From Rhodospirillaceae bacterium (GTDB taxonomy: Bacteria > Pseudomonadota > Alphaproteobacteria > Rhodospirillales > Rhodospirillaceae), in the NCBI GenBank assembly GCA_050250575.1, contig JBFWOJ010000018.1, positions 5,816 through 69,815 on the forward strand: a stretch of 64,000 nucleotides of DNA, given 5' to 3'. The stretch's first letter is position 1. Each line of letters opens with the position of its first letter. Below the pieces are notes generated by a model. It did no database searches, was not told the origin of the DNA, and saw only the letters and a list, made by a program, of their open reading frames with translations. This document shows, in pieces, positions 49,781 through 50,569 of this stretch. Both the position numbers and the translations under genes were made by a program.

Positions 49781-50569
49781 ATGACGAAGCAGAAAACCGC
49801 GCACCGTGCGTCGGGAAGCCGAACGGAGCGCGCAGGGAAATCCGGCCCGGGGATCGCGCTGGATGCCGTCGCGTCCGTACTCGCGCAGAAGGAGGTGCCG
49901 CGCAGCGACATCCAGCTTCTCGCGGAGCTTCACACTGACGGCAAAGCATGGATTATAGATGTCGCTCCATGCGCAGACGGGCCGGTGTACCGGGTTGCCA
50001 AGAAGGACGTCATCGTCGGTCAGTCAAAAATGACCACTTGCACGGACGGCCGGCAGAAAAAGATCCATCACATCACTGTCCGCGGCGACGCCGATGGCAT
50101 GCGCTGGCAGGCCGGAAAAGCGCGCGATCTATTTGGCCTGGATCCTCTTGGTATGCGGCCGCCGCAGTACGTCCGTATCGCTTTCACCTCGAGCGGCGAA
50201 GGTACGCTCACCTATGGTGGGACGTCAGTCCCTTGTTTGGGACGGCCGGGATTCGGCTACCGGAAGGATCTGACGATCACTGGTGTCGTGGGCATCGACA
50301 AATTTAGGGAACGATGGAGCACCGAATACGGGGTGATGATGGAGTGGGCCGTGCTCATCATGGGCCAGCGCGGAATCTATGTGCACCTGGGGGCGGACAC
50401 CATCGCAACAAATTACAACCAACCGAGCGCGGGATGCATTCATCTCGCCGGTGCAAACGCCAGCAGGTTTTACGACTGGATTACGGGGACGACGCGCTTT
50501 GAGATCAGCTGTCCCTGGGCTGTTCCAGGCAGAAAGGATGTTTCCCCGTTTGTCGAACTTCAGTCGTGA
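49781..50569 (+). CDS. YkuD (L,D-transpeptidase)-fold domain protein, no signal peptide
   Basis: AGGAGAG lies 7 nt upstream of the start codon. The C-terminal motif is IYVHLG-x13-SAGCIHLAGANASRFYDWI. This compares with the canonical H-x-G...S-x-GC-[IV]-R-[LM]. Confidence 0.7.
   Translation: MTKQKTAHRASGSRTERAGKSGPGIALDAVASVLAQKEVPRSDIQLLAELHTDGKAWIIDVAPCADGPVYRVAKKDVIVGQSKMTTCTDGRQKKIHHITVRGDADGMRWQAGKARDLFGLDPLGMRPPQYVRIAFTSSGEGTLTYGGTSVPCLGRPGFGYRKDLTITGVVGIDKFRERWSTEYGVMMEWAVLIMGQRGIYVHLGADTIATNYNQPSAGCIHLAGANASRFYDWITGTTRFEISCPWAVPGRKDVSPFVELQS

Follow-up and report, generated by a model that had tools for sequence, protein, structure and literature searches.

A signal-less protein with an L,D-transpeptidase fold encoded beside pairs of giant proteins

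The stretch of DNA analyzed here (the window) comprises 64,000 nucleotides of contig JBFWOJ010000018.1 from a Rhodospirillaceae bacterium, and carries a genomic island that contains a gene for a 262-aa protein, P0001, resembling L,D-transpeptidases (LDTs; YkuD fold). A sequence-only reading had drawn attention to this gene, proposing that its product may be a delivered effector rather than an enzyme of cell-wall maintenance. In this report, we examined the protein, its family and the neighborhoods of the genes. Our main finding is that long-form members of the family are usually encoded next to pairs of giant proteins, named G1 and G2 in the window; this conserved linkage is the strongest signal that emerged, and had gone unnoticed in the sequence-only reading. 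The analysis defines a rare and distinct branch of the LDT fold, devoid of export signal and altered in its active-site motif, which on islands and plasmids is genetically tied to giant and wholly uncharacterized protein pairs. We tentatively favor the view that the enzyme is a dedicated wall-editing accessory of the G1-G2 pair, and neither a housekeeping LDT nor a toxin of a type VI secretion system (T6SS). Being small and of predictable chemistry, it offers the most tractable entry into the function of the giants.

Linkage to giant proteins and the peptidoglycan-enzyme slot

Family members are of three kinds: long forms of about 220-260 aa that combine an N-terminal and a catalytic domain, short stand-alone domains of about 115-135 aa, and fusions. 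At eight loci, long or fused YkuD-like genes directly adjoin giant open reading frames (ORFs; gene orders in Table 1). Homology to G1 and G2 was confirmed by phmmer and BLAST in the window and at L001, L002, L004 and L009; with the same programs, no similarity to them was detected for the giants of L003 and L039, which may represent further, very divergent giant-pair families equipped with the same accessory enzyme. In the window, the G2 stop codon and the ATG of the YkuD-like gene are 21 nucleotides apart, and the G+C content at third codon positions (GC3) of that gene, 0.69, resembles that of G1 and G2 (0.72-0.75), unlike that of the following gene, which encodes an S8 subtilase (0.56). No S8 gene was present at any other YkuD or G1-G2 locus examined. 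The subtilase looks like a local, later addition, and its GC3 and its absence elsewhere indicate that the conserved module consists of the giants plus the YkuD-like protein.

Frame sharing was also considered. The YkuD-like gene and the giant upstream of it lie in the same frame, separated by one stop and 3-13 sense codons, at three of five loci; at L009, the gene is in frame with further stops, and at L001 it is out of frame. A G2-YkuD fusion made by stop-codon read-through was not retained, since such sharing is compatible with chance (P about 0.05). Neither was a natural (Rosetta stone) fusion of the two, as the 1517-aa protein P0046 has no similarity to G1 or G2.

Of 401 sampled Pseudomonadota, 5 (about 1%) have a G1 homologue, and a wider sampling of G1-G2 in two classes added distant, accessory-poor loci only. 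Three G1-G2 loci (L031, L032 and L033) have no YkuD-like gene. At L032, G2 is followed by a secreted trypsin-like protease and then by a signal-less 462-aa protein with Phage_lysozyme and Peptidase_M23 domains, which mirrors the YkuD plus S8 arrangement of the window; the combination of a wall enzyme with a protease therefore recurs with unrelated folds. Taken with P0003 (L005:3580-4920), in which the catalytic domain stands behind an Amidase_2 domain, the filling of this slot argues by analogy for peptidoglycan as the target of the YkuD-like protein and for a hydrolytic mode of action. Genes for Tubulin_2 (1050 aa), DUF4384, OmpA-like and caspase (Peptidase_C14) proteins also lie near L032, a neighborhood that resembles a conflict system.

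These data bear on a first rival explanation. LDTs can anchor proteins to the wall: LdtA-C anchor Lpp, and alphaproteobacterial LDTs tether outer-membrane proteins. The enzyme could likewise be a transpeptidase that covalently links G1 or G2 to the meso-diaminopimelic acid of peptidoglycan, the neighboring protease perhaps exposing the acceptor end. The tethering of lipoproteins and outer-membrane proteins by LDTs is established (PMC12729407), linkage to the envelope-directed giants is tight, the G1 homologue of L004 has a lipoprotein leader of the twin-arginine translocation (Tat) type, a protease gene often accompanies the module, and anchoring would make an immunity gene unnecessary. However, hydrolytic partners make little sense for an anchoring function, and they are what is seen, both in the lysozyme-M23 protein that fills the slot and in the fusion to Amidase_2. 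Moreover, the protease is unconserved (S8, trypsin-like, M35 or absent), and the motif has neither the canonical His nor the Asn/Arg. We consider this explanation improbable.

Fold, active site and absence of an export signal

The sequence-only reading had correctly placed the ORF, H202, the Cys codon and the string S216-A-G-C219-I-H221-L...F-Y-D-W in the translation. The Pfam YkuD profile (PF03734) matches residues 193-241 of P0001 with E=1.1e-4 and 23.3 bits, for a gathering cut-off of 23.4, and only its second half is covered (positions 69-145 of 146); all eight close homologues score above the cut-off (26-35 bits). P0001 has no other Pfam match at E<=1, and none in NCBIfam, PADLOC or PHROGs. 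A full-length AlphaFold model, built on a 9-sequence alignment, comprises four parts, namely a basic tail that is disordered (residues 1-43), a beta-rich part (44-109), a disordered linker (110-128) and a confident C-terminal domain (129-243). A second model, of the domain alone (residues 126-252, 54 aligned sequences), had a pLDDT of 96 and a pTM of 0.89. Compared with the PDB by Foldseek, the full-length model has 47 matches at E<=0.001, all of them LDTs; the same holds for the best 50 matches of the domain model, with TMq of 0.57-0.68 (one at 0.54), the value being 0.68 for 5bmq and 0.59-0.65 for LdtMt2. Superposition of a predicted structure, which the sequence-only reading had proposed as a check, thus yielded a YkuD fold. 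The two outcomes that it had named as counter-evidence, a model of another fold and homologues devoid of the Cys/His pair, were looked for and not observed. The motif does lie in the C-terminal third, where it had been placed, but the fold is not confined to that third: it spans residues ~129-246, the C-terminal half of the protein.

The predicted LDT-like active site was borne out by phmmer and profile alignments, in which His202 and Cys219 fall on the catalytic His336 and Cys354 of LdtMt2. Among 54 family members, His202, Gly218 and Tyr160 are conserved in all, and Cys219 and Ser/Thr216 in 53; a second cysteine, Cys152 in the string PCLG, is found in 52. The canonical motif of LDTs and Tlde1 proteins is H-x(14-17)-[S/T]-H-G-C-h (PMC9638812), and is not fully matched by that of P0001, H202-x13-S-A-G-C-I-H. 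In the family, the residue preceding Gly-Cys is Ala in 36 of 54 members and His in 5; the second residue past the Cys is His in 45 of 54, and Asn in LdtMt2; and the His-to-Ser spacing is 12-13 residues, versus 14 in LdtMt2. As modeled, the catalytic part of P0001 is hence a YkuD fold with a conserved His/Cys pair and a deviant active-site motif. It shares with the periplasmic LDTs (PF03734; LdtMt1/LdtMt2 and E. coli LdtA-E) the fold of the catalytic domain, the His/Cys positions and the S-x-G-C-[IV] core, and differs from them in having no Sec or Tat signal and no lipobox, in its minimal domain of ~120 aa, in the deviant motif of its family, and in being encoded by a rare, island-borne and giant-linked gene. 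Its fold and catalytic pair make the protein a member of the YkuD superfamily, within which its motif, size, context and missing signal mark a distinct branch.

The N-terminal 190 residues had been described as unrecognizable, a statement that needs correction. Besides the catalytic fold, which begins at ~129, they contain a beta domain (residues 44-109, pLDDT 76-90) that is conserved across 17 long forms. The preceding tail is not conserved among homologues, and has a pLDDT below 50 at residues 1-29 and 36-40. The beta domain has no match among PDB sequences or in other accessory proteins; we regard it as a candidate docking domain. A docking domain common to the G1-G2 accessories was also sought and rejected, as a profile of this domain matched neither the S8 N terminus, nor the lysozyme-M23 protein, nor PDB sequences.

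A heuristic scan for hydrophobicity, RR motifs and lipoboxes revealed no Sec or Tat signal, no RR motif, no lipobox and no charge-free hydrophobic h-region in P0001, in agreement with what had been read from the sequence. The sole mildly hydrophobic stretch (residues 24-35) has an internal Asp and corresponds in the alignment to a helix that is conserved in the N-terminal domain. In the family as a whole, only about 4 of 54 members carry an export signal; P0009, P0033, P0041 and P0044 have Sec/Tat lipoprotein-type leaders. The scarcity of signals, the deviant motif, and one family-linked giant pair that also has no leader would suit a cytoplasmic enzyme with a substrate other than the wall, for example one that cuts or transpeptidates a protein (as in maturation of the giants) or a soluble peptidoglycan precursor. 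Against it stand the four leaders just named, the pairing of the short forms with a periplasmic lipoprotein (see below), and the peptidoglycan hydrolases found as fusion partners and substitutes; in addition, no YkuD-fold enzyme with a non-peptidoglycan substrate was found in the literature searched. A cytoplasmic role seems to us a poor fit with little chance of being right.

Still less probable, to the point of being nearly negligible, is an ordinary housekeeping LDT whose start codon or signal was misread, as might be supposed from the RefSeq label 'L,D-transpeptidase' of the Bradyrhizobium japonicum homologue. Position 49781 is the first possible start codon downstream of an in-frame stop, with no start upstream of it, and the homologues have no signals either. 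Of 401 genomes of the order, among them 7 others of the same genus, only that of the window has the gene; the remaining 400 do not. Finally, the gene lies in an island that has an integrase and is bounded by intact att repeats. The sequence-only reading had likewise set the protein apart from housekeeping LDTs, and in this respect it stands, given the island, the rarity and the deviant motif.

Rarity is a general property of the family. A word-index search retrieved 8 relatives only (39-56% identity), and when 1.84 billion cluster representatives were searched exhaustively with a profile, 135 proteins were retrieved at E<=1e-3, of which 89 at E<=1e-10. A scan of species-representative genomes gave one further locus only, in Lichenibacterium ramalinae, and a copy is carried by B. 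japonicum plasmid p1S06B (NZ_CP066352.1). The family is rare, mobile and patchy.

Effector-like relatives and the case for a wall-editing accessory

The effector proposal was modeled on Tlde1 proteins (DUF2778, PF10908), which are T6SS effectors with L,D-carboxypeptidase/exchange activity, accompanied by Tldi1 immunity proteins (PMC9638812; 10.1101/2020.02.18.954545) in a classical effector-immunity layout (10.1101/2020.02.18.954545). P0001 would then be an antibacterial effector, carried by G1-G2 or released together with them, that damages the periplasmic peptidoglycan of competitors as Tlde1 does after T6SS delivery. With this precedent, the absence of a signal and the patchy distribution agree, and toxin-style relatives do exist, which lends the proposal partial support. 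In P0023 (381 aa), the catalytic domain is fused to eCIS_core/DUF4157, a marker of injected toxins; in P0046, it forms the C terminus, beyond a Ser/Gly-rich center and with no other Pfam domain. A cluster encoding an eCIS_core protein adjoins the P0002 gene; at L007, which is an exception to the linkage with giants, a divergent cluster of this kind is the neighbor, and the contig ends 323 bp past the gene. The fusions P0023, P0046 and P0003 are reminiscent of the module shuffling of polymorphic toxins.

The most effector-like arrangement is that of the short forms. At seven loci, a signal-less enzyme gene (about 126-134 aa) is closely trailed by a lipoprotein gene; the gap is 3-216 nucleotides where measured, and the partner ORF of L021 is cut by the contig end. 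The lipoproteins (166-196 aa) are mutually homologous (26-76% identity), have a hydrophobic leader ending in Cys, and give no Pfam match. By analogy with Tlde1-Tldi1, these short forms and their partners are a candidate new family of effector-immunity pairs acting on peptidoglycan. In the tree, the lipoprotein-paired genes make up one derived subclade within a single short-form clade (SH-aLRT 89, 95), and the long forms linked to giants branch basally, at scattered positions; the pairing therefore arose in a single evolutionary event and is not ancestral.

This confinement to one derived subclade speaks against the effector explanation for P0001, as do the giant-linked loci themselves, since in none of the eight is the enzyme gene followed by a lipoprotein or secreted ORF that could serve as an immunity gene. 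In the window, the next gene encodes a signal-less S8 protease, and no homologue of the lipoprotein of the short-form clade is encoded in the genome. Delivery routes are wanting as well: no match to TssC/VipB or to Phage_sheath_1 (contractile sheath) was detected in the genome, which is 95% complete, and no delivery by G1-G2 is known. P0001 has no match to PF10908/DUF2778, Tlde1a does not figure among its PDB profile matches at E<=10, and P0001 has no eCIS_core domain such as that of its relative P0023. The Tlde1/T6SS analogy, if taken as membership, is thus abandoned; both a Tlde1-type T6SS effector and a cargo of an extracellular contractile injection system (eCIS) or tailocin in this genome were rejected, the latter because no sheath gene was found. 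What P0001 has in common with Tlde1 is the lack of signal and a structurally trimmed LDT fold with a His/Cys pair (essential in Tlde1), and the short-form clade shares with it the placing of a gene for a periplasmic partner next to that of the enzyme; P0001 is further separated from it by the G1-G2 linkage and by a different N-terminal domain. An effector requires an immunity gene, and none follows the giant-linked copies, so a machine-associated wall-editing enzyme fits better: between sister cells, a wall toxin without immunity would be self-defeating, whereas a tethered enzyme needs none. For this reason, we rank the wall-editing accessory above the delivered effector, which we regard as unlikely without dismissing it.

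In the wall-editing accessory that we favor, an active YkuD-fold cysteine enzyme would work on peptidoglycan stem peptides, most likely hydrolyzing them as an L,D-carboxypeptidase or endopeptidase, or else catalyzing an exchange. Lacking an export signal of its own, it would use its N-terminal beta domain to bind the giants and travel with them to the wall, in this island probably by piggy-backing on the twin-arginine leader of G1. At the wall, its activity would open or remodel the producer's peptidoglycan locally, such that a very large complex might cross the envelope or sit in it. Such a role is played by wall enzymes that lack a signal or are bound to a machine in flagella, in type IV secretion systems (T4SSs) and integrative and conjugative elements (ICEs), and in type 10 secretion systems (T10SSs). 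Machine-associated wall enzymes include the bifunctional hydrolases of ICEs and T4SSs, and FlgJ of flagella.

The slot enzyme of L032, a bifunctional lysozyme plus M23 protein, would be of this kind. LDTs and peptidoglycan hydrolases assist the export of large proteins in T10SSs, and opening of the wall for large cargo, including by an LDT, is established (PMC12729407). As for the T10SS enzymes (TtsA with LdtD, ChiX; PMC12729407), our case involves a signal-less wall enzyme encoded beside very large, putatively exported cargo, with no immunity protein; unlike them, it lies in an island without holin or spanin, the giants are uncharacterized, and the fold is YkuD and not lysozyme, NlpC/P60 or M23. 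By analogy, the mode of action of the enzyme would be closest to that of the specialized wall enzymes that go with large cargo or envelope machines; the alternative is a resemblance to toxins of the Tlde1 type. Neither the linkage of a YkuD fold to giant pairs nor the short-form/lipoprotein pairs were found in the literature searched.

Twin-arginine-type leaders are seen in G1 of the window (SRRAFV), in G1 of L004 (TRRQFL, then FLGAC) and at L005 (TRRWIL), and the genome encodes TatC (E=6e-72). Judging from these sequences, piggy-back export with G1 is plausible in this island. As in the Tat hitch-hikers HybOC and DmsAB, a signal-less protein is encoded beside a partner with a twin-arginine leader in a genome with TatC; unlike in these, there is no obvious logic of cofactor binding, a leader is missing from one related giant pair, and the complex is putative. 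To our knowledge, such a hitch-hiker cargo would by far exceed any described in size, and, if the enzyme does travel with the Tat-leader giant, it would have implications for how large a Tat substrate can be. At L004 (L004:853-1152), the ~2500-aa G1 homologue, with TRRQFL followed by the lipobox FLGAC, is a predicted Tat-exported lipoprotein.

Several observations weigh against a wall-editing accessory. Of the two giants on the B. japonicum plasmid (L039), the first has no Tat leader, so that Tat piggy-backing cannot be general, and the island has no holin-like ORF, from which it follows that this is not a classical T10SS. Relatives occur in the toxin-style contexts described above (the eCIS_core fusion and the lipoprotein pairs). 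At L010 and L011, long forms were found without a giant ORF in the DNA examined (20 kb at L011). The N-terminal domain is not common to the S8 and lysozyme-M23 proteins, so no shared docking tag was found. Finally, with Ala for His, His for Asn/Arg and a shorter spacing, the deviant motif leaves room for a substrate that is not a normal stem peptide.

A bolder proposal, which we hold to be possible although rather doubtful, would have the enzyme be the wall-breaching or editing subunit of an undescribed two-giant export or delivery system, riding on the Tat-leader giant, with the catalytic module reused repeatedly (eCIS_core, Amidase_2, lipoprotein immunity partner) to give a new interbacterial toxin family. 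If this were true, the YkuD-like family would be the first means of approaching what the giant G1-G2 system does.

The island and related loci

The island is 17.35 kb long and is bounded by two exact copies of a 17-bp repeat, one at 35570 and the other at 52903 (Table 1). Besides the YkuD-like gene, its cargo consists of G1, G2 and the S8 subtilase only. No holin-like ORF (small, with several transmembrane segments) is present between attL and attR, and no spanin in the island. PDB sequence searches with G1 and G2 were uninformative. Among NCBIfam models, the subtilase is most similar to the mycosins of type VII secretion systems, at a score far under the cut-off. An anti-phage defense system was considered and rejected, PADLOC remaining blank for the enzyme, G1 and G2 and giving only a generic subtilase match for S8.

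Table 1. Positions and arrangement of features in the window and at related loci
Feature	Position	Strand	Remarks
tRNA-Phe (GAA), integration site	35509..35584	+	ARAGORN
attL, 17-bp direct repeat	35570..35586	.	exact copy at 52903
P4-type tyrosine integrase	35698..37038	+	Arm-DNA-bind_3, Phage_int_M, Phage_integrase domains
Giant G1	37396..44814	+	2472 aa from Met of MSRRAFVGG; twin-arginine-type leader
Giant G2	44816..49759	+	1647 aa; start 1 nt past G1 stop
Shine-Dalgarno-like AGGAGAG	49770..49776	+	4 nt 5' of ATG; direct sequence reading
YkuD-like gene (P0001)	49781..50569	+	262 aa; ORF and translation, family search
Residues 1-43, basic disordered tail and short helix, no signal peptide	49781..49909	+	pLDDT, hydrophobicity scan
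Residues 44-109, beta-rich domain specific to long-form family, candidate docking domain	49910..50107	+	model strands
Residues 129-246, YkuD-fold catalytic domain	50165..50518	+	domain model, Foldseek
His202 codon, catalytic His	50384..50386	+	LdtMt2 His336 in alignment
Cys219 codon, catalytic Cys	50435..50437	+	LdtMt2 Cys354 in alignment
S8 subtilase, no signal	50630..52366	+	Peptidase_S8 E=2e-30
attR, 17-bp direct repeat	52903..52919	.	
In-frame single-stop junctions	window 49757-49783; L002:9989-10003; L003:8265-8309		
Gene order, window			G1-G2-YkuD-S8
Gene order, L001 (Methylobacterium)			G1-G2-YkuD
Gene order, L002			G1-G2-(extended) YkuD
Gene order, L004			YkuD-G1-G2, order inverted
Gene order, L009 (Lichenibacterium)			G1-G2-YkuD
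Gene order, L005/L006			Amidase_2-YkuD, then ORF with TRRWIL leader
Gene order, L003			cut ORF - 2161 aa - YkuD
Gene order, L039 (B. japonicum plasmid p1S06B)			2787 aa - 2704 aa - YkuD
L031, after G2			small lipoprotein, then secreted VWA7_N-like protein
L032 region (genome G745)	8536-11190	-	downstream of G1-G2; protease, then lysozyme-M23 protein
L033, after G2			secreted M35 metalloprotease, then DUF4403 lipoprotein
Short-form enzyme-lipoprotein pairs	L014:479-1484; L016:146-1219; L017:75-1049; L018:981-1914		
Short-form enzyme-lipoprotein pairs	L019:9989-11118; L021:920-1517; L022:535-1492		L020 = same pair as L019

Some features of the related loci deserve mention. The module lies beside resolvase and restriction-modification genes in Methylobacterium sp. 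A52T (L001:11247-17085) and in Lichenibacterium ramalinae (L009:12108-14885); the restriction-modification genes encode an EcoRI-like enzyme with its methylase and an MmeI-type enzyme, and the surroundings are of mobile or defense-island type. In B. japonicum, the giants and the YkuD-like gene (L039:1-16633 and L040:6504-6901) are on p1S06B, a conjugative plasmid. At L011 (L011:10621-11661), the long form is followed, 5 nucleotides on, by a 346-aa ORF without signal or Pfam match, which may encode a different partner protein.

Two similarities were discarded: neither Pfam nor a PDB sequence search confirmed the resemblance to lysozyme that visual inspection had suggested for the N-terminal extension of P0004, and weak repeat matches of the family profile to Big_9/cadherin proteins reflect Ig-like strand patterns and not homology. 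In BFVD, the domain model has weak matches to A0A1L7N1E2 and A0A7H0XAI4 (E ~6e-4 and 6e-3, TMq 0.44-0.48). The matched region is a domain within phage proteins of more than 1200 aa, one being a DUF5675 protein of Ralstonia phage RP31, so that a related fold may occur in phage virion proteins.

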